A stretch of 63,831 nucleotides of DNA, filler included, from a bacterium (lineage in GTDB: Bacteria; UBP15; UBA6099; JAJRTR01), in assembly GCA_024278215.1 (NCBI GenBank). It is 5 parts of 5 records of this genome, joined end to end, with 100 filler letters (N's around TTAATTAATTAA, not from the genome) between each part and the next. Parts side by side here need not be neighbours in the genome. Positions count along the whole stretch, not along the records: positions 19,034 to 31,266 come from JAJRTR010000059.1; 4 more parts are not named here. The stretch is one strand, 5' to 3'. Shown one piece after another: positions 4,088-44,513 of this stretch. Each line of letters begins with the position of its first letter. Within the stretch, counting starts at the first letter, position 1. The notes below the pieces were generated by a model, which saw only the letters and a list, made by a program, of their open reading frames with translations, ran no database searches and was not told where the DNA came from. A program made the position numbers and the translations under genes.

Positions 4088-6775
4088 ATGAGTAATACGG
4101 AAAACACAGGCACGACACAGACTTTTGATGTTCGAATAGAAAAACAGATGAAGGAGTCATACATAGATTACGCGATGAGCGTGATCGTAGGGCGCGCGCT
4201 TCCCGATGTTCGGGACGGGTTAAAACCGGTTCACAGGCGGATTCTCTATACTATGGGCGACCTGGGACTCACTCCGGAGAAGGCACACAGGAAATGTGCC
4301 AAGATCGTCGGAGATGTCATGGGGCGTTTCCATCCCCACGGCGACACGGCCATATACGATACGCTGGTGCGTCTCGCGCAGGATTTCAACATGCGCTATC
4401 CACTTGTCGACGGACACGGCAACTTCGGTTCCATCGACGGCGACAACGCGGCGGCCATGCGGTATACGGAAGCGCGAATGGCCAAGCCCGCCATAGACCT
4501 TCTGGCCGACATAAAAATGGACACTGTCGATTTCGCGGATAATTATGATTCCACTGAAAAAGAACCGACGGTGCTGCCGAATAAACTGCCGAACCTGCTG
4601 CTCAACGGCTCTTCGGGCATTGCCGTGGGGATGGCCACCAGCATTCCACCTCACAATATGAACGAAGTAATCGACGCGACAGTGAAGTTTATCGACAATC
4701 CGGAGACGACGGAAGTTGCCGATCTGATGGCGGACATCAAGGGTCCGGATTTCCCGACCGGCGGCGAGATTCTCGGAAAGCAGGGCCTGCGAGACGCCTA
4801 TGAAACCGGCAGAGGGAAAGTTACGGTGCGGGGCAGGGTCGTGGTCGAAACACAGAAAAACGGTCGCGAGCGGCTCATTGTGACCGAAATGCCCTATATG
4901 GTCAACAAGTCCAATATGATCGAAAGCATGGCGGACCTTGTGCGCAACAAGAAGATCGAGGGCATCACCGACATCCGCGATGAATCGTCACGAGAGGGCA
5001 TCCGGGTGGTCATCGAACTGAAAAGAGACGCAAACCCATACGTTGTCCAGAACCTGCTCTACAAACACACTCAATTACAGAATACTTTCAGCATAATCAT
5101 GCTTGCGCTCGACAATAACAAACCCGTTGTTCACACGTTAAAAGAAATGTTGTGGAAATTCATCGAACACCGCCGCGTGGTGGTGCGTCGACGCACGGAA
5201 TTCGAACTGAAAAAGGCGAAAGCACGCGCCCACATACTCGAAGGACTCCACATAGCTCTGGAAAATATCGACGAAGTTATCGCAATCATAAAGAAAAGCA
5301 ACGACGGCCCCACTGCACGTGCGGCACTCATAGCACGCTTTGAACTATCCGAAATCCAGGCGCAGGCCATACTTGACATGAGACTACAGAAACTTACCGG
5401 ACTGGAACAGCAGTCGCTGCTAGACGAACTTGAAAAACTGCTCGAGCAGATCGCCGAGTTCGAAGACATACTGGCGAATCCGCACCGCATCGACACGATA
5501 ATAAAGGAAGAACTCGTCGAGATGAAAGCGAAATACGGCGACGAGCGACGCACGGAGATCGCCGCGGGCTCGGCCGACTTCGACATCGAAGACCTCATCC
5601 AGCGCGAAGAAGTCGTCATCACCGTCACGCGCGCGGGCTACATCAAACGCCTGCCGGTAGACACCTACCGCAGCCAGGGGCGCGGCGGACGCGGCATCAT
5701 CGGCTCGACACAGAAAGCCGACGACATCATACGGCACCTCTTTGTCACTTCCAGCCACGATTACATACTCTTCTTCTCGAATCGCGGCCAGGTATACCGC
5801 ATGAAGGGCTACCAGATACCGCAGGCGAGCCGCACCGCCAAGGGCATCCCCATCGTCAACCTGCTACAGCTCAACGAGGGCGAATGGATCACCGCGACAA
5901 TCCCCATCACTGAATTTGCCGAAGACCATTACCTGCTTATGGTTACGAAATTCGGCATAGTGAAAAAAACAGTGCTCAGAGCGTTCGACACATCGCGCAA
6001 AGGCGGCATCCGCGCTCTGACACTCAGACAGGACGATCAGCTTCGCTATGTGCTCATGACAGATGGTGCGCAGGACATCATCCTCGCCACAAAAACAGGA
6101 CTTAGCATCAGGTTCCACGAATCCGATGTGCGCTTCATGGGACGCGCCGCCGCCGGTGTGCGCGGCATAAGGCTCGGCCCGGACAACGAAGTCGTCGGCG
6201 CGGGCATTGTCAACGACGACGCCTCGCTGCTTGTCGTCTGCGAAAAAGGATACGGCAAACGCACTTTGCTCAGCCAGTACCGCACGCAGAAACGCGGCGG
6301 CAAAGGCATCCTCACGATCAAAGCCTCGGAGCGCAACGGCAACGTCATCGGCATCGCCGTCGCGGACATCGACGAAGAACTCATGATGATCTCGGCAAAA
6401 GGCATCGTCATCAGGCAGAAGGTAGCGGACATCTCGGAAACGGTAGGCCGCAGTACAATGGGCGTACGACTGATGCGGCTCGGCAAAGGTGACAGCGTCG
6501 TCACATTCGAAGTATTCAAAAAAGAAGAGGTGGAGGAGAACGGCTACGGAGAAAACGGAGAAAATTCCGAAAACAATAATAATGATAATAACAATGAAGG
6601 TGAAAACGGCAACGCGGAAAACTCTGTCGAAAAAAACGAAGGCAACGAAGAAGCCGACACCTCTGGAGAAAGCTCCGAAGAAAACGCCGCAAACACAACA
6701 ACTGAAGCAGAAAACACGGCAGGAGCGGAAACTACCGTAGAACCCGACGCCGCGCCCGATACGGAAACCACATAG
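4088..6775 (+). CDS. gyrA: DNA gyrase subunit A with long acidic C-terminal tail
   Basis: [28 protein letters not shown], GyrA-box QGRGGRG, beta-pinwheel repeats. Confidence 0.98.
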
Positions 6776-6814
6776 CAGCCCCCTTGCGGTGCCTTAAGCG
6801 ATGTTGAAGCACTG

Positions 6815-6974
6815 GAGCCAATTGCATAATTAAGTTCGAAGCGAGGTCGAACGAAATTATTCAGAAGCAAGGCGGAGGTGCAAAATCACCGCAGGCGTAC
6901 TTGCAGAGTACGTTGAGGAAGATTTTGTGCCGACAACGCAGCTGTTGACAATTGCAGCCGACTGTAGCCGAATC
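6815..6974 (+). mobile_element. MITE copy C (cut by contig end)
   Basis: Starts GAGCCAATTGCATAAT; body matches the other copies. Confidence 0.85.
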
Positions 6975-7074
6975 NNNNNNNNNNNNNNNNNNNNNNNNNN
7001 NNNNNNNNNNNNNNNNNNTTAATTAATTAANNNNNNNNNNNNNNNNNNNNNNNNNNNNNNNNNNNNNNNNNNNN
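6975..7074. other. Artificial contig spacer
   Basis: N-run with a central TTAATTAATTAA six-frame-stop linker, 100 nt. Confidence 0.97.
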
Positions 7075-18933: not shown

Positions 18934-19033
18934 NNNNNNNNNNNNNNNNNNNNNNNNNNNNNNNNNNNNNNNNNNNNTTAATTAATTAANNNNNNNNNNN
19001 NNNNNNNNNNNNNNNNNNNNNNNNNNNNNNNNN
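18934..19033. other. Artificial contig spacer
   Basis: N-run with TTAATTAATTAA linker. Confidence 0.97.
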
Positions 19034-19995: not shown

Positions 19996-20750
19996 ACTAC
20001 ATCGACCTGTTTTCGGGAATAGGGGGATTCGCGCTCGGCGCGTATTGGGCCGGATTGAAAGTTGAAAACCACTATTTCAGTGAAGTCGATCCATACTGCG
20101 TGCAACTGTATAGGGAGAGATTCCCTGAATCAATACCACTAGGAGATATAAGCGCTTATGAGAACTGGGCCCTCCCGGACGGAGAATACATTGTTTCCGG
20201 CGGGTTCCCTTGCACACCGTTCAGTGTTGCCGGGAAGCAAAGAGGCGAGGAGGATGACCGCTACCTCTGGCCGGCGATGTTTGGCGTTATACAAAAAGTC
20301 AGGCCCCGTTGGGTCGTTTGTGAGAACGTTACTGCTATCGACGGCATGGTACTCGAATCTGTGCTTTCTGACCTGGAGTCCGCAGGGTACGAAACGGCGC
20401 CGCCGCTTGAAATACCGGCTGTCGCGGTCGGTTGTTACGGAGAACGGTATCGCACGTGGATTATTGCCTATGCCGACGGCGAGCGAGCCGACCAATGGTC
20501 CAACAACGAACGCCACTCGAACGAGTGGAGTATGGAGGCGCACGACCAGGAAGGGCGCGCGCCACGGAGCCGGGTTTCACGACGTCTTGTACGCACTCTA
20601 TGGCGTGAAGAAGCCGTCCCCGATTTTTTACGAAGCGATTATGTTCTACCCGACAGGGTGGACAGAGTTAGGGCACTCGGAAATGCGATTGTCCCTCAAA
20701 TAGCGGAACAGTTGTTTCGCGCGATTATCACAGCGGAATATGAACGTTGA
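19992..20750 (+). CDS. DNA (cytosine-5) methyltransferase
   Basis: DLFSGIGG, GGFPC, ENV, RYRTW, LGNAIVP. Confidence 0.93.
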   Translation: MNYIDLFSGIGGFALGAYWAGLKVENHYFSEVDPYCVQLYRERFPESIPLGDISAYENWALPDGEYIVSGGFPCTPFSVAGKQRGEEDDRYLWPAMFGVIQKVRPRWVVCENVTAIDGMVLESVLSDLESAGYETAPPLEIPAVAVGCYGERYRTWIIAYADGERADQWSNNERHSNEWSMEAHDQEGRAPRSRVSRRLVRTLWREEAVPDFLRSDYVLPDRVDRVRALGNAIVPQIAEQLFRAIITAEYER

Positions 20751-21507
20751 ATGGATTATTTATTTAGCTTCCACGAGCAGCGTCGAGAATTGCGGCCGAT
20801 GATTAAATACTTCGGTTCCAAATGGCGGAGCGCGCTCCGATATCCAGTACCGAAATATGCAACAATAATCGAGCCGTTTGCGGGAGGAGCCGGATATAGC
20901 TTGAGGTACCCGGATCACAATATCGTTTTGATAGACAAGGATCCAATAATAATATCGATATGGAGATATTTACAAACGGTTACTCCGGATGAAATTTTGG
21001 CATTGCCTGATGTCGATACATCTGTCGATGATCTTGATATATGCCAACAGGCTCGATGGCTTATAGGATTTTGGCTGAATACCGGCGCTCGCTCATGCAA
21101 AACGCCGTCTTCATGGATGAGGTCAGGAATTAACCCGGGGTCATTTTGGGGGGAAAGTTTGCGCCGGCGTATTGCAGCACAAGTAGCCAGAATTCGACAT
21201 TGGGAGATGCATTGTAACGATTATGCCGCCATAGATGTTCCAGAGCCGGCGACCTGGTTCGTCGATCCGCCATATCAGATGCTAGGAATGTATTATAGAT
21301 ATAACAGGAAAACTATTGATTATGCAGCATTAGCGGAATGGTGCAAGACGCGCCCAGGGCAAGTTATCGTGTGCGAACAAGAAGGCGCAGATTGGCTACC
21401 GTTCAAGAAACTTATTCACTCGCATACGGCACGACACACTATGTCATCGGAGGTTATTTGGACAAATGCTTAACGGGAAAATTGTTTCGCGCGATTATCA
21501 AAGCGGA
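20712..21507 (+). repeat. 26-bp direct repeats (20712-20737 and 21482-21507) flanking the adenine MTase gene
   Basis: TTGTTTCGCGCGATTATCA(C/A)AGCGGA, one mismatch. Confidence 0.85.
20751..21473 (+). CDS. DNA adenine methyltransferase (Dam/D12-like)
   Basis: KYFGSK, EPFAGGA, FVDPPY; true start may be ATG 20799. Confidence 0.85.
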   Translation: MDYLFSFHEQRRELRPMIKYFGSKWRSALRYPVPKYATIIEPFAGGAGYSLRYPDHNIVLIDKDPIIISIWRYLQTVTPDEILALPDVDTSVDDLDICQQARWLIGFWLNTGARSCKTPSSWMRSGINPGSFWGESLRRRIAAQVARIRHWEMHCNDYAAIDVPEPATWFVDPPYQMLGMYYRYNRKTIDYAALAEWCKTRPGQVIVCEQEGADWLPFKKLIHSHTARHTMSSEVIWTNA

Positions 21508-21516
21508 GGAGAAACA

Positions 21517-21729
21517 ATGACTCCGGAACTGTTCCAGAAGCTCAAACGATACCTGTGGGTATTTGCTTCGCCTATGGGAGCCGGAACATGGGATGAACAT
21601 GGTTCGTTTCGCAATCCACACAAGGGAAATCGTCGGTATCTCTATCGGTGGGATGCTAAACCGAAATCTGACGTTTGGCGGCCGATGGAATATCAGGAAG
21701 CGTTGTTGATATGGCCTATAAGAGATTAA
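21517..21729 (+). CDS. Phage hypothetical protein
   Basis: GGAGGAG RBS before ATG 21517; tight packing with neighbours. Confidence 0.55.
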   Translation: MTPELFQKLKRYLWVFASPMGAGTWDEHGSFRNPHKGNRRYLYRWDAKPKSDVWRPMEYQEALLIWPIRD

Positions 21730-22265
21730 GGAATAGCATACTGCTGCGCGGCGGGAGTTGGTTTAACGACGGGTCTCTCTGTTGCATAGTAAATCGTCTC
21801 GGCAATGATCCGTCGAGACGTAGCAGATATTCCGGATTCCGAATCGTTCGAAAAGCAAACCCGCCAAGCAATAAAGGAGAAAAGATGAAATTACAGGTGA
21901 GCCGAGGCGGGAACTGGGTCAACTTCGCGGCCTACTGTCGTGTGGGGAAACGTTACTACGACGCCCCGTCGAGCCGCTATAACGGAGTTGGGTTCCGTGT
22001 TGTACGGAATGCAAAACCAATAAGTCATGAAGGAGAAAAGATGAACTTACAGGTGAGACGCGGAGGGACCTGGTTCTACCACGCGCCCTACTGTCGCGTG
22101 GCTGGTCGGCACTACATCGCTCCGTCGTGCTGTTACGAAACCACCGGCTTCCGTGTTGTACGGAAGGCACAATCTATTGAACCCAGTCGTGATCTAATAA
22201 TCACGATTGAAATAAAACTAACCCAGGAGGGTGGAGAATGGACAAAGACAATCTCGTTAAGGTAA
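21711..22265 (+). CDS. ORF with three tandem 156-bp units, each encoding an FGE/CLec C-terminal (DGR VR-like) segment
   Basis: RGGxW...C...R....PS......GFRxVR cores at 21747-21851, 21903-22007 and 22059-22163; units 2 and 3 preceded by AAGGAGAAAAG-ATG. Confidence 0.75.
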   Translation: MAYKRLRNSILLRGGSWFNDGSLCCIVNRLGNDPSRRSRYSGFRIVRKANPPSNKGEKMKLQVSRGGNWVNFAAYCRVGKRYYDAPSSRYNGVGFRVVRNAKPISHEGEKMNLQVRRGGTWFYHAPYCRVAGRHYIAPSCCYETTGFRVVRKAQSIEPSRDLIITIEIKLTQEGGEWTKTISLR

Positions 22266-22843
22266 CGAAGGGGACTTTCCAGATGGGCTCGGACGACGGG
22301 CACCAGGACGAACGGCCTGTTCATGAAGTCGAAATAGCCCGCGACTTTTTGATTTCAAAGTATCCGACGACGTTCGAGCAGTTTGACGCATTCTGCGAAG
22401 CAACCGGAAGAAACAAGCCCAACGACAGCGATTGGGGCCGTGGCGAAAGACCGGCAATCAACGTCAACTGGTATGACGCTATCGCTTACTGCAACTGGCT
22501 GAGTGAGAAGGAAGGTCTCACGCCCTGCTACACGATCGACGGAGAGCAGGTGGAGTGTGATTTCGACGCCAACGGCTATCGACTCCCGACCGAGGAAGAG
22601 TGGGAATACGCCGCTCGCGGAGGGACGGAATCACAGGGCTATAAATACGCCGGCTCGAACAGCCTCGAAGACGTGGGCTGGTACTGGGGAAACTCAGGCG
22701 GCCGGACGCATCCAGTCGGCGAGAAAAAGCCGAACGAACTCGGAATCCACGACATGAGCGGGAACGTGTGGGAATGGTGTTGGGACGAGTACGACTCGAA
22801 GGCATATGAGAAAAAATGGAAACGAAATATAATCGTCGGATAA
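22238..22843 (+). CDS. FGE-sulfatase (CLec-fold) domain protein lacking its C-terminal RGGSW...GFR segment
   Basis: FQMGS, DERPVHEV, PAINVNWYDAIAYCNWLS, YRLPTEEEWEYAARGG, PNELGIHDMSGNVWEWCWD, then stop. Confidence 0.9.
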   Translation: MDKDNLVKVTKGTFQMGSDDGHQDERPVHEVEIARDFLISKYPTTFEQFDAFCEATGRNKPNDSDWGRGERPAINVNWYDAIAYCNWLSEKEGLTPCYTIDGEQVECDFDANGYRLPTEEEWEYAARGGTESQGYKYAGSNSLEDVGWYWGNSGGRTHPVGEKKPNELGIHDMSGNVWEWCWDEYDSKAYEKKWKRNIIVG

Positions 22844-23211
22844 TGCGCGGCGGGGGCGGGGACAGCTACGCGACATTCTCTTGCGTGGCACATCGCGACT
22901 ACGACAATCCGTCGCGCTGCAGCGGCATCATCGGATTCCGGGTAGTACGCAAAGAGGAAGGGGGGGAAAGGAAAGTAAAAATCGACAGGAATGGGGATTT
23001 ATGGATCGAACGCAGGGGGAAACTCGTCCGACAAAGCTGCATGCGGGCAACCACAATGGGGACATGTGGGGAACATTGCCCGATGTTTCATTATTGGGAA
23101 AGAGATGGTCTTTGGTATGTCCGCTTATGTACCCAGCGCGAGTGGGACTGGGTCTTCGAGCAATTTGAAATCGAGGACCGATCTGGCTTAACAGATGAAA
23201 ACGAGATATAA
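22816..23211 (+). CDS. VR-like cassette 4 fused to a Cys-rich phage hypothetical domain
   Basis: Core 22846-22950, in the -1 frame relative to the FGE gene; continues into KIDRNGDLWIER...CGEHCP. Confidence 0.65.
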   Translation: METKYNRRIMRGGGGDSYATFSCVAHRDYDNPSRCSGIIGFRVVRKEEGGERKVKIDRNGDLWIERRGKLVRQSCMRATTMGTCGEHCPMFHYWERDGLWYVRLCTQREWDWVFEQFEIEDRSGLTDENEI

Positions 23212-23383
23212 TCGTCGGATACTACGTGGCGGAAGCTGGAGCTACTACTTAATCTACTGTCGCTTAGCTTACCGCACCGCAGTTATTCCGCCGGGGCGTT
23301 ACTACAACGTCGGCTTTCGCTTCGTACGGAATACTGATGGCTCGGTGATGAGAATGGGGGTTGATGATGCGCCAGATAATTGA
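23195..23383 (+). CDS. VR-like cassette 5 (stand-alone short ORF)
   Basis: Core 23225-23329 RGGSW...GFRFVR; leader nearly identical to that of cassette 4. Confidence 0.65.
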   Translation: MKTRYNRRILRGGSWSYYLIYCRLAYRTAVIPPGRYYNVGFRFVRNTDGSVMRMGVDDAPDN

Positions 23384-24225: not shown

Positions 24226-24833
24226 TTATTGATTGGTGTAATTTCTCCGCAGCGAAATATGCGGTTATGCGCTGGCATTATTCAAAGCGCATGCCTGCTC
24301 CGCCACGCGCATGCATTGGCGTGTGGGAAAATAATATATTCATTGGCACAATTATTTTTTCCCGTGGCGCGTCGGCTGGTATTGGATCGCCGTATAAATT
24401 ATCAAATACAGAATGTGTAGAATTGACACGAGTTGCACTTGGGAAGCACGAGGAACAAGTGTCGCGAATATTATCAATTGCCATCAAAAAACTGAAAAGG
24501 AAATGCCCTCCCTTGCGATTGATCGTGTCATATGCTGACCCGTGGCAGGGACATATGGGGAAGATTTATCAAGCCGGCAACTGGATATATACCGGACAGA
24601 CGGCCCCGGCAATTGTATATTTCGACGAATCAGGGAAAGAAATTCATAATAGATCAATCGGTGTGACAGGATATAGAAAACAATTCGGCGTTATGAAAAA
24701 GACGCGAACGCCTGATGAATTGCAAAAGACTGTTAGGCCGCCGAAATACAGATATCTATATCCGCTTGATTCTGCAATGCGAAAACGTATATTATTACTT
24801 TCGAGGCCGTATCCGTCTGCGCACGTGGTGTAA
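24213..24833 (+). CDS. Mom-like (phage Mu Mom family) DNA adenine hypermodification enzyme
   Basis: WHYS, GVWE, ELTRVAL, IVSYAD..QGHMGKIYQAGNWIYTG, KYRYLYPL...YP. Confidence 0.8.
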   Translation: MGGLVIDWCNFSAAKYAVMRWHYSKRMPAPPRACIGVWENNIFIGTIIFSRGASAGIGSPYKLSNTECVELTRVALGKHEEQVSRILSIAIKKLKRKCPPLRLIVSYADPWQGHMGKIYQAGNWIYTGQTAPAIVYFDESGKEIHNRSIGVTGYRKQFGVMKKTRTPDELQKTVRPPKYRYLYPLDSAMRKRILLLSRPYPSAHVV

Positions 24834-24889
24834 TGGAGCATTTGTAGATTCCATCTGCAAGGAGGGGGTTCGAATCCCGCCCGTGCGCT
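24819..24889 (+). tRNA. Atypical tRNA-Gly (anticodon TCC)
   Basis: Acceptor GCGCACG/CGTGCGC + T73; D arm GTGT-AATGGA-GCAT; anticodon arm TGTAG-ATTCCAT-CTGCA; T arm GGGGG-TTCGAAT-CCCGCC with one extra base; no encoded CCA. Confidence 0.8.
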
Positions 24890-26408: not shown

Positions 26409-28426
26409 AATCGATTCCCGCAATGATTGCCGACGGAATTAGAACACGAATACATAGATGGGCCTATACAAAAGCAACAACGCAGATCAGATTGACCGAC
26501 CCTGGCGTGCGCAAGGTCTTTGGGATTGACCTCGGCGACCAAGAGGAATTGACCGACCCGTTCAAACAACTCCCGATTGTGCGTGCAGCGATAAGCGCAA
26601 AGGCAGCGAACATCGCGCAGGTGCCATTTGTGATTCGGCAGCGTGGGGCGGACGAGCCGGTGCCCGAGAACCATCCGCTCGTGGAATTGTTCAACGATAT
26701 CAATCCGTATCTCTCGAAATATGATTTTTTCGAACTGATAGTGACATACATGGACGGATGGGGAGACGCGCCGATTTTTCTTGAACGCGAGTTTGAAAGA
26801 GCGCCTGGAATCCCACAGTTTTTGTGGATGGAATTCCCGACAATGGTCCGCGCAGCAAAGTACCAACAGAGGTTCGTGTGATGGTTGGTGCGGCGCGGGA
26901 AGCAACAAGAATTTTTTCTGCCTGAAGAAACAATCCTGATTAAATATCCGAACCCATATGACAAGTTGAGGGGGTTATCGAAGCTGTCTGCGTTGGAGAT
27001 TACCAACAAGGCCGATTGGGGCGCGATCAAGTCGAACCAGATGATTTTCGAAAATGACATCGGAGCAGGTGTTGTTTTTTCGGCACCTGAGGGCGTCGAG
27101 CTGGAAGATGCCGATTACAAGCGGATAGAACAGGAGCTCATCAAAAAGCGCGAAGGCGCGAAGTATCATCACAAGGCTATGATCCTCTCCGGCGGAATGA
27201 AGGCCGACGACCTGCGAAAGACGAATCGTGACATGCAGTATATCGAATTGCGGAAGTTCAACCGCGAAGACGTATCGATGGTCATGAAGGTTCCGAAGCC
27301 TGAGCTTGAATTGTACGAGGATATTAATTACGCGACGGCGCTTAGCTCCGATCGGTCGTTCTGGAAAAAAACACTGATACCGCTTATGCGGAAGATCGAA
27401 GACGCGCTCAACACGCAGTTTTTCTACCGGCGTGGGTACGAGTGTTATTTCGATGTAGCGCAGATCGACGTACTCAATAGCGAGGTGCTCGAAAAGGCCG
27501 ATACTGCGCAAAAATATATCGCAATCGGATATACGCTGAACCAAGTCAATGAGCGTCTAGGGCTCGGGTTCCCTGAGGTCCCCTGGGGGGATGATCCGTT
27601 CGCAGGAACAGCACTACTGCCTGAGCCGCAGGTGCGCGACGTGACGCCGAAAGCGCCAGAATCCATAATGAGCGAAGTGCATCGTAAGCAGTGGCTGGAC
27701 ATCGTGCAAAAAATCCTGCCCGAGGTAGGGCGCGCAAGTAAAAGCGTAAAAGCCTATTTCAAAAAGATCGAAAGAAAAATCCTGCGCGAAATGATCAAGC
27801 GCGTCGATGGGCGCGTGGTTGAGATCAAGGCGCCGACTGATGATTACGAATGGATTGAAGATCTGTTTGAAGAATCGGAATTGAAACGGATCATCGAAGC
27901 GCATCATCGTGCAGCGGCGAAAACCGGCATCGTGTCGATAGATACTCCGGCAAAAGTGGACCCAGACCCTATCGTCAGGGCTGTCCTGGCTGCGCATGGC
28001 GGGGACAAGATAGCCGATATCAATCGGAGAGCGAGCCGATACGTAATTGAAAAGTTGCGCAGCATCCTCGACCAGGCGATTGCCGATGGTGTGCCTGAAG
28101 AAGAAGTGGCGCAGAGAATAGCGACCGGATTGAAATCGAGCATGGCGAACATTTCGCGTCGCGCGCGGACAATCGCGCGGACAGAAATACACGGCGCGTA
28201 TTCGCAGGGGCGACACGAAACGATGATGCAGACGGCGCCCGTGCGGCTGCGGTGGCTCAGTACGCATGATGACGCTGTGCGTGAGAGCCACGAAATGATG
28301 GACGGCGAAGTCACCGACCCGGGAGAGATGTTTTCAAATGGGCTGCGATTTCCGCTCGATCCGAACGCCACAGACCCGGGGGAAGTGATAAATTGTCGGT
28401 GCGCCGTGATAGCGGAATATGAATAG
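26405..28426 (+). CDS. Portal protein fused to MuF/gp7-like head morphogenesis domain; in-frame TGA at 26879-26881
   Basis: ORFs 26405-26881 and 26885-28426 are in one frame; portal motifs YPNPYDKLRGLS, DMQYIE, TLNQVNERLG; MuF motifs RARTIARTE, WLS..D..VRESH, VINCRC. Confidence 0.85.
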
Positions 28427-29161: not shown

Positions 29162-30480
29162 AAAAGAATGCCGAACTGCTCAAAAAATTGATCGAGCAGA
29201 CCGAGGACGAGCAGACGGCGAAAGCATATTCGGAGCAGTACGACGAATGTCTCCGTGAAATCGCGCGAGAAGAAGCGCGCGAAGAGCAGAAGACGGAGAT
29301 CAAGGCGCTCAAAGACGAAATCGCCGCGATGAAATCGTCTCAAGCAAAAATCTTCGACGTTATCGAGGCGGGGACGATTACCGTCGGTGCCGGGAAGACG
29401 GAGTCCTATAAGGGCTTCAATCTGAACCGCGAAGTGAAGCTCGCCGGTATGCGGGCGATCAAACATCAGGGGATCATCAACCGGAGGTTCGCTGCGGATC
29501 CTGAACTCGCTATGAATTTGTCGAAAATGTTCATCGACAAGTACGTCGAGGCGAGCCGGAAATCGCCGTTGGAAATCGCAAGAGCAAAAGCGGCGATGCA
29601 GGAAGGGACCGATCCCGAAGGTGGATATCTCACGCCGACCGAACAGCGATTCGAGCTCGTCGCGTATGCGCGCGAGGCTTCTATCGCGCTGCAACGGGCG
29701 ACGCACATCTCGATGACCTCCGACGTGATGACCATTCCGACCGAGTTGACCAAAGTCTCGGTAGCTGTCACGGCCGAAGAGGCGCAGGCGACCGAGACCG
29801 AGCCGACGTTCGACCAGGTAACGTTGACCGCGAAGCGGTACGACGGATACGGAAAAACGTCGAACGAACTCCTCGAAGACGCGGCAGTCAACGGCGGAAT
29901 CGTAGGACTGCTCCTCGACCAATTCATCGAGGCGACCGGCAAAGCGATCGATTCGGTCGTGTTCACGGCTCCTGGGGATCCTGCGTCGGGTATTTTCTCG
30001 GCAAAAGCCGGCGCGTCGGTCGTGTTCGATTCCGGCTCGACCGCCTTCTCGGAAATCATCGAGGCCGACCTCCGCGAAGCGATTCGCAAGGTGAAAAAGG
30101 AATACAGGGACGGCGCCGTGTGGATGATGCACGACGAGCTCCTGTGGGACTACATCCGTGGACTGAAAGACTCGAACTGAAACTACCTGTTCGCCGAAGC
30201 GCGAAGCGGTGGCCCGCCGCCGCAGTCGATCTGGGGCTACGATGTCGTTTCGAGCTCGCAAATGAACGCAGTGTCTGATAGTGCCGCAGGCGCGACCTTC
30301 GGCGCTTTCGGAAATCTCCGGGGTGCATACATCGGAGACAGAATCACGAACTTCGATATCATGATCGATCCATACACGCTTATGGAGTATCATCAGTCGA
30401 GGTTCTATTGCTACACAAGATGGGCGGTAGTAATCGCGCTGCCGAACTATTTCTGCCGAATCGTGACGGCTGCAAGCTAA
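29140..30480 (+). CDS. HK97-fold major capsid protein; in-frame TGA at 30178-30180
   Basis: EGGYLTP, SNELLED; LKDSN*NYLF...IWGYDV continues in frame to TAA 30478-30480. Confidence 0.88.
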
Positions 30481-31266: not shown

Positions 31267-31366
31267 NNNNNNNNNNNNNNNNNNNNNNNNNNNNNNNNNN
31301 NNNNNNNNNNTTAATTAATTAANNNNNNNNNNNNNNNNNNNNNNNNNNNNNNNNNNNNNNNNNNNN
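31267..31366. other. Artificial contig spacer
   Basis: N-run with TTAATTAATTAA linker. Confidence 0.97.
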
Positions 31367-44413: not shown

Positions 44414-44513
44414 NNNNNNNNNNNNNNNNNNNNNNNNNNNNNNNNNNNNNNNNNNNNTTAATTAATTAANNNNNNNNNNNNNNNNNNNNNNNNNNNNNNN
44501 NNNNNNNNNNNNN
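44414..44513. other. Artificial contig spacer
   Basis: N-run with TTAATTAATTAA linker. Confidence 0.97.

Follow-up and report, generated by a model that had tools for sequence, protein, structure and literature searches.

The targets of diversity-generating retroelements (DGRs) have been described as single polypeptides, each with its own C-terminus diversified. Other systems, such as the PilV shufflon and pilE/pilS, use inversion or gene conversion to swap DNA at one site of expression. Passages on multi-VR DGRs report several tandem variable repeats (VRs) per element (PMC3521204, PMC10907252, PMC6642488), and the passages searched in the DGR literature cover elements with several targets, full domains in tandem and a single orphan VR (PMC3521204, PMC6642488, PMC5758913, PMC8144416, PMC10907252, PMC7824862). 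A scaffold gene reduced to its core and accompanied by VR mini-genes is not described in the searched parts of these DGR papers, the supplementary tables of the surveys lying outside that search. Here, we describe such a locus on a 12,233-bp phage-like contig (19034-31266) within a 63,831-base stretch of DNA from the bacterial assembly GCA_024278215.1 (hereafter the window), which is a concatenation of separate contigs and not one molecule. At this locus, the gene for an FGE-type C-type-lectin (CLec) scaffold ends ahead of the variable segment, and this segment occurs five times in neighbouring open reading frames (ORFs).

We read the locus as a split DGR-derived variable protein, in which one FGE-type CLec scaffold would be completed in trans by separate modules, and give this reading a probability of roughly 55%. 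In the proposed mechanism, the invariant scaffold (22238-22843) would be translated alone and stop before the last sub-domain, which would bear the whole variable face and be supplied five times over by three coupled ORFs (ORF1, ORF4 and ORF5). Each module would dock non-covalently on a core molecule and complete its fold; one scaffold gene could thereby give rise to a number of binders that differ in surface, and ORF1, having three units, could bring more than one core together. What the analysis shows directly is the anatomy of the locus, the NNY codon signature, purifying selection on the framework and the recurrence of the layout in other phages.

The scaffold gene and its five variable units

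The following features make up the locus.

21711-22265, + strand: ORF1, 184 aa, with three VR-type units in tandem in a single frame and no scaffold (PF03781 positions 206-255, E 1.1e-12)
21747-21851, + strand: unit 1 (RGGSW...GFRIVR), from the alignment and unit profile
21875-21887, + strand: internal AGGAG and ATG ahead of unit 2
21903-22007, + strand: unit 2, from the alignment and unit profile
22031-22043, + strand: internal AGGAG and ATG ahead of unit 3
22059-22163, + strand: unit 3, from the alignment and unit profile
22238-22843, + strand: core-only FGE/CLec scaffold gene, 201 aa (Pfam PF03781 match; AGGAGG 7 nt upstream of the ATG)
22811-22816, + strand: A6 run (GAG AAA AAA TGG), the site at which a -1 shift would fuse core and unit 4
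22816-23211, + strand: ORF4, 131 aa, in which a leader and unit 4 precede about 84 aa of orphan Cys-rich extension; shares 28 nt with the end of the core
22841-22845, + strand: TAATG, in which the core stop overlaps the in-frame ATG of the unit-4 ORF (stop-start coupling)
22846-22950, + strand: unit 4 (RGGGG...GFRVVR, without the usual W5 and C12), from the alignment and unit profile
23195-23383, + strand: ORF5, 62 aa, leader and unit 5 (PF03781 positions 212-255, E 0.0016); partner in the co-fold
23225-23329, + strand: unit 5, from the alignment and unit profile

The core matched the FGE-sulfatase family PF03781 with an E-value of 3.1e-46 over profile positions 3-197 of 255, indicating that the C-terminal segment is absent from it. 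Its C-terminus lies 19 residues past the WEW motif, and the stop codon TAA (22841-22843) comes ahead of any unit. An earlier reading made from the sequence alone (the sequence-only reading) had placed the end of the FGE gene just before the RGGSW...GFR segment, and the extent of the profile match agrees with this. The FGE-sulfatase/CLec domain is present but divided among ORFs, the core matching PF03781 positions 3-197 and the units positions 206-255. The VR is not the C-terminal end of the scaffold's own ORF: unit 4 is in the -1 frame, and the other units are in separate ORFs.

The five units align over 105 nt in one register without indels, and their pairwise identity is 53-70%. They had been called exact 105-nt units, a description that holds for length and register and fails for sequence. 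Their starts are spaced by 156, 156, 787 and 379 nt. Several details of the sequence-only reading were recovered here: the 156-nt period of the first three units, which share one frame with no stop between them (ORF1); an AGGAG and ATG for each of units 2 and 3, found as AGGAGAAAAGATGA at 21875 and 22031; and a near-identical 27-nt leader of units 4 and 5, with 25 of 27 positions matching. ORF1 belongs to a family of mini-proteins with 2-5 units, and its 3' end overlaps the core start by 28 nt, while ORF5 overlaps both ORF4 (by 17 nt) and the next gene. The packing is operon-like, with overlaps of 28, 28 and 17 nt in addition to the TAATG at the core stop, and no terminators above chance were found on the + strand. 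For the extension of ORF4 (22960-23208; residues 48-131), a search of 5.8 billion proteins returned no relative but itself, and neither a Pfam nor a PHROG match was found. The protein search with ORF5 gave no candidates sharing words with it.

The core stop looks natural, because core-only relatives likewise end before a unit. Specifically, the core-only proteins P0108 and P0118 (58% identity) end 18 residues past WEW and have no unit, their tail similarity to the core being not significant. The cores of two related loci described below (L031 and L032) are 152-153 aa long, match PF03781 at positions 32-193 of 255 and have no unit downstream; a third related core, that of L057 (202 aa), also stops before any unit. 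The split of the scaffold, proposed earlier from the window alone, is thus matched by the stops of these relatives. The closest full-length relatives (at most 68% identity) carry the source names FGE/SUMF1.

The same junction admits another explanation, in which the core and unit 4 would belong to a single canonical gene whose reading requires a -1 shift at GAG AAA AAA TGG, with the other units as extras; the shift could be programmed or could result from a 1-nt homopolymer error or mutation. Unit 4 does occupy the very position expected of a canonical C-terminal unit, right after the A6 run and in the -1 frame, and the core and a unit share one ORF in most viral relatives. However, the 94 nt of RNA downstream fold no better than shuffled sequences (z -0.01; 95 of 200 shuffles as good), and the TAATG at the core stop and unit-4 ATG fits reinitiation. 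Moreover, the core-only genes of L031 and L032 have no downstream unit, and P0108 and P0118 end at a similar place. A run of six A residues is also short for transcriptional slippage. We regard a frameshifted single gene as quite unlikely.

Codon signature, age and selection of the units

At the 16 hypervariable positions of the five units, 72 of 80 codons are NNY (binomial p = 1.8e-17), compared with 45 of 95 for the remaining codons of these units and with a pyrimidine frequency at third positions of 44.7% in 11 genes of the contig. The sequence-only reading had given the same count, which was reproduced from the unit alignment. Judging from these codons, the units bear a DGR-type signature. 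Drift is found on top of it: the variable codons include 28 NNT, and third positions vary in 27 of the 35 codons of the five units, indicating that the copies are old, as the synonymous differences had first suggested. Nine framework codons are invariant in L032; in the window, codon 22 alone among these is the same in all five units. The window units appear to have been made by a DGR-type process long ago and to have drifted since, because only one of these nine codons is identical and 68 of 105 columns are variable.

Candidate templates within the locus were rejected. With one unit taken as the template of another, only 6-17 of 32-49 mismatches fall at an A of the putative template, and a single common template repeat (TR) for the five units would need A at 68 of 105 columns. 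No sixth unit copy or TR was found in the 63,831 bases by nhmmer with a five-unit profile (next match E 0.93). The absence of a reverse transcriptase (RT), Avd or AAC-rich template from the contig, noted in the earlier reading, was confirmed by this DNA search and by the lack of any RVT_1 or Avd match in the 106 stop-to-stop ORFs (at least 55 aa) of the 12.2-kb contig; the contig is a fragment of a phage, and the RT and Avd negative covers that fragment. Within the window, AAC is most densely repeated at 6531-6750 (10 in 120 nt), in the C-terminal region of gyrA on another contig; this run was rejected as a template repeat for having no similarity to the units.

The drift of the window units has not been free, as the framework codons are under purifying selection. 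Their dN/dS is 0.09-0.39 in all 10 unit pairs, with dN of 0.78-1.46 at the hypervariable codons and a dN/dS of 0.37 for the non-hypervariable codons across the whole 156-nt repeat, all estimates from few codons and with a framework set partly picked from the same data. In terms of sequence, the modules in this contig look like an old, now static library that is not currently mutagenised.

The age of the units raises the possibility of a relic locus, in which the units and the core would be non-functional remnants of at least one DGR target gene, carried by a prophage or phage fragment in decay, with frames kept open only by chance or because the decay is recent. The contig without RT, Avd or TR, the heavy synonymous drift (27 of 35 third positions), the single fully conserved framework codon, the loss of W5 and C12 from unit 4 and the in-frame TGA codons in the portal and capsid genes (see below) all fit decay. 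Set against these, the four ORFs are all open, tightly overlapped and stop-start coupled, and the framework dN/dS stays within 0.09-0.39 in every pair. In addition, core-only relatives exist, and a split layout is intact in the RT-less, 90%-complete 99-kb phage of L057. A relic is therefore considered unlikely.

Related loci, unit-only proteins and predicted structures

Profile hidden Markov models of the unit and the core were run over all collected loci, and 227 loci had a match. Among these, a core-only gene with at least two unit-only ORFs and no canonical gene was found only in the window (one core-only ORF, three unit-only ORFs and five units), in L031/L032/L033 and in L057. The search for the same layout in other phages, which the sequence-only reading had recommended, thus yielded two further lineages.

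L032 (TARA marine scaffold, 4720-7032) was returned by a metagenome scan with the three-unit protein P0141. In it, 13 units are spread over six consecutive mini-ORFs immediately upstream of a core-only gene, whose product of 153 residues covers Pfam positions 32-193 and stops seven residues past WEW; SbcD, SbcC and a helicase are encoded downstream. L031 (1-1150) and L033, from other assemblies, have the same gene order. Two identical units are shared by L032 and L033, and a third recurs in L031 with two residues changed. Codons were analysed in the 10 canonical-length units of L032, with three longer units excluded. Across all 10, nine framework codons show no difference at any base, and 128 of 160 hypervariable codons are NNY, 108 of those being NNC. 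In one sub-type of L032 unit, 35 of 105 columns are variable, and with A placed at every one of them the sequence becomes a typical Asn-rich template. This pattern is as expected from recent adenine mutagenesis acting on all units, and L032 looks like an active DGR; RT and TR are absent from the parts of the L032 and L031 scaffolds examined.

A viral scan with the core-only P0118 gave 78 loci, nearly all of the canonical type in which core and unit share an ORF. L057 (5980-8265, IMGVR_UViG_3300013132_000033) departs from this: downstream of its core-only gene of 202 residues lie about 12 ORFs of 44-50 codons, each with a single unit. Each of these mini-genes overlaps the preceding one by about 10 nt in the -1 frame, with TAATG-type junctions as in the window, and a ribonucleotide reductase gene lies downstream. 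The record is 99 kb long and 90% complete by CheckV, contains one FGE core only and has no RVT_1 match over its length. Judging by L057, a static unit library can persist without a DGR, and the split layout recurs in phages both with and without an active DGR signature.

These independent loci also bear on whether the window layout is an assembly artefact, that is, whether the assembler strung together variants of one hypervariable VR from a mixed population. The contig does come from a draft or metagenome assembly, and a passage of Wu et al. 2018 voices the suspicion of such errors in one tandem array (PMC5758913). However, the units are divergent both in their flanks and at synonymous sites of the framework (dS 0.55-2.6), beyond what adenine mutagenesis of a single VR could produce, and an analogous layout is found in the independent assemblies of L032, L033 and L031. 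An artefact is hardly credible.

Small proteins made of units were also found in databases. A HMMER search with ORF1 against 1.84 billion cluster representatives returned 786 proteins at E <= 0.001, and the 149 non-self proteins among the best 150 were sorted by simple motif rules (regular expressions). Tandem complete FGE domains, a known kind, accounted for 79 of the 149, and arrays of 2-5 units only, with a period of 44-57 aa and no core motif, accounted for 44. Seven had a unit array beside a single core, located before the core in P0128 and P0134, after it in P0135 and P0139, and on both sides in P0122; the remaining 19 belonged to none of these classes. In most array-only proteins, the initial Met lies 7-20 residues ahead of unit 1, and the last unit is followed by 4-15 residues. 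They look like complete genes, because the Met is near unit 1 and the stop follows shortly after the last GFR strand. By these matches, the unit-only genes are a real and widespread class of small proteins, for which no description was found in the literature searched.

Within 90%-identity clusters, protein lengths step by about 51 residues (391/340/289; 234/183; 146/92), indicating that unit number changes quickly. The clusters with length steps of whole units were P0134/P0273-P0280, P0125/P0283-P0286 and P0141/P0271. All members of the P0134 cluster end at one place after the core, without a unit there, and their N-terminal units differ at the variable positions. Adenine mutagenesis of AAY codons cannot yield K, E, Q, M or W. 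In 121 units from 49 array proteins, these residues make up 92 of 1936 hypervariable residues (4.8%), compared with 13.5% overall.

AlphaFold2 gave no confident fold for ORF1 alone (18 alignment rows; mean pLDDT 46.9, pTM 0.24). For the natural fusion P0128, with three units and a core, the core was modelled confidently (block means of 79-94 for residues 161-250, lower towards the C-terminus), and the best fold match of the model was TvpA (2Y3C, E 2.5e-4). The three units of P0128 had pLDDT values of 29-41 and were undocked, which says little either way, as the alignment is shallow and repeat-confounded. Co-folding the core with a unit peptide, a check suggested by the sequence-only reading, was run three times with ORF5 (62 residues) and gave ipSAE values of 0.96, 0.95 and 0.96, while the highest value among three controls was 0.00. 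Of solved complexes, 58 of 80 reach the mark applied, as do 2 of 110 mismatched pairs, figures that are only a rough guide here, with custom alignments in use. The runs agreed in at least 99% of contacts, with a partner pLDDT of at least 77. Residues 5-19, 22-29 and 32-48 of the ORF5 unit contact core residues 173-185, 109-117 and 35-44; in particular, the conserved strands of the unit (about 9-11 and 39-44) lie against the WEW strand of the core (177-181) and residues 38-44 and 114-117. The co-fold supports but does not prove binding of the core and ORF5; in this model a module can take the place of the missing segment, as it may do in the cell.

The arrays without a core suggest yet another explanation, in which unit arrays would be autonomous small variable proteins, such as self-associating binders or decoys, and the truncated core would have a separate role, the two being neighbours by descent. 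The 44 of 149 best non-self matches with no core in the same protein fit this, as do clusters of 58-72-aa proteins in the ESM Atlas, where PF03781 occurs in 38-52% of members (a lead only). On the other side, ORF1 alone obtained no confident fold, unit genes adjoin the core-only gene in all three split lineages, and the fused forms P0122, P0128, P0134, P0135 and P0139 keep units and one core in a single chain. The co-fold also places the unit on the core (0.96 versus 0.00 for the best control), with the caveat of likeness discussed below. Independent parts seem improbable to us.

The phage contig, the proposed role and known systems

The contigs of the window are joined by four spacers.

6975-7074: contig-joining spacer, N44-TTAATTAATTAA-N44
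18934-19033: contig-joining spacer of the same form
31267-31366: contig-joining spacer of the same form
44414-44513: contig-joining spacer of the same form

The phage contig is tied to the bacterial contigs by binning alone (draft assembly or bin); the protein search gives its length, 12,233, for the longest contig with the core protein. The other contigs carry ordinary bacterial genes, including gyrB/gyrA, permeases, nitrogenase-like proteins, aldehyde ferredoxin oxidoreductase and subtilase. The order on the phage contig is DUF5662, C5 and N6 DNA methyltransferases, the FGE cluster, a ParB-like protein and Mom; tRNA-Gly, DUF5681, terminase, portal, protease and major capsid follow after Mom. 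The tRNA-Gly (anticodon TCC, 24819-24889), located between Mom and the terminase region, is the sole tRNA of the contig. At 20748-20753, the TGA of the C5 methyltransferase gene is directly followed by the ATG of the N6 methyltransferase gene in the same frame, and readthrough of this TGA would join the two into one protein.

No close relative of the phage was found in scans with the core, ORF1, Mom and TerL or with blastn. The closest core relative in genome contigs had 53% identity, the first viral scan for relatives of the locus gave one locus, and relatives of Mom were found at seven loci. Blastn against phages gave a match to the methylase only, and tblastn of ORF1 gave none in phages and one weak match in plasmids. 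None of the 47 loci with TerL relatives (at most 50% identity) had a unit or core match.

The portal and major capsid genes contain one in-frame TGA each (26879-26881 and 30178-30180), and they are the only called genes of the phage contig with an internal TGA. Pfam matches span both codons (portal profile 1-92 then 108-315; capsid 1-185 then 187-278), and the capsid TGA aligns to a Gly of the HK97-family capsid in PDB 6TBA. The two TGAs could reflect readthrough or recoding of late genes, or else a nonsense mutation in each gene.

The sequence-only reading had proposed a library of binding surfaces supplied to one scaffold, either as peptides in trans or by cassette recombination. The former gains support from the two other lineages, the stop-start junctions and the co-fold score (0.96 versus 0.00). 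The latter did not stand: cassette inversion or gene conversion was rejected, as all units are direct, the contig carries no recombinase and the core has no resident acceptor unit.

Several points weigh against completion in trans of a shared scaffold. The split layout is found in three lineages only, and that of the window itself is known from one assembly. The synonymous drift of the units, with 68 of 105 columns variable, appears too great for one template, and the contig fragment has neither RVT_1 nor Avd in its 106 ORFs. Units 1-3 have no stops between them and would give three separate peptides only if the internal starts were used, and unit 4 is without the usual Trp and Cys and has an orphan extension. 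The in-frame TGAs in the portal and capsid genes could mean that the element is decaying. Finally, the co-fold pass may reflect likeness to the solved FGE/TvpA structures, because both chains are pieces of a fold with solved structures.

In all three lineages, the neighbours of the locus are early, DNA-modification or repair genes and not tail genes, which hints at a function inside the cell or in host takeover and not at a tail fibre. We infer translation of each ORF, assembly in trans and the nature of the target. A more far-reaching version, which we hold only tentatively and think somewhat doubtful, would make the system a two-part, antibody-like phage binder, in which an invariant scaffold and up to 13 mini-genes for the variable sub-domain, either refreshed by a DGR or frozen, complete the fold in trans and provide many specificities per infection, possibly against intracellular host targets such as defence factors. 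If so, multi-unit modules would cross-link several scaffolds.

If the split is real in this sense, encoding the scaffold and the variable face apart, with one core serving many modules, would be a new way to build protein repertoires, at a cost of about 150 nt per added specificity instead of about 750. Several specificities could be presented at once, and the repertoire could outlast its DGR. In addition, DGR surveys would under-count targets. According to a passage in Roux et al. 2021, targets <300 nt were initially dropped from clustering and mapped to superclusters later (PMC8144416). Most single- and double-unit genes found here are <300 nt.

Considering known systems, the locus shares its fold family with the DGR variable protein TvpA of Treponema denticola, in which the unit profile has its best PDB match (PDB 2Y3C, residues 251-290, E 3.3e-9). 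With catalytic FGE (SUMF1/FGE), the locus shares the Pfam family PF03781. The catalytic cysteines of FGE lie in the C-terminal segment. The window units have one Cys at position 12 in four of five copies and no fixed second Cys. An enzyme role of the split FGE protein is unlikely, because the segment that bears these cysteines is split off and hypervariable here.

Shufflon and silent-cassette systems likewise offer alternative C-terminal segments for one constant part. Unlike in those systems, the units of the window are direct repeats, each in an open frame with its own start, with no recombinase on the contig and no resident unit. The DGR-diversified FGE-type CLec proteins share the NNY codon signature, and their VR/TR pairs in the relatives L002 and L022 have the same 32-residue RGG...GFR register. 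However, their VR is the C-terminus of the scaffold polypeptide, in a single copy per domain, whereas the scaffold of the window ends before the VR, five VR segments are located in separate ORFs, and neither TR nor RT is on the contig. The multi-VR DGRs of Marichromatium purpuratum 984 and Thiohalocapsa PB-PSB1 (DGR 4/5) resemble the locus in carrying several VRs in tandem on one element. In those elements, every VR has a complete domain of about 250-320 aa to itself, whereas in the window the repeat is a 45-55-aa end-piece only, with a single core for all copies.

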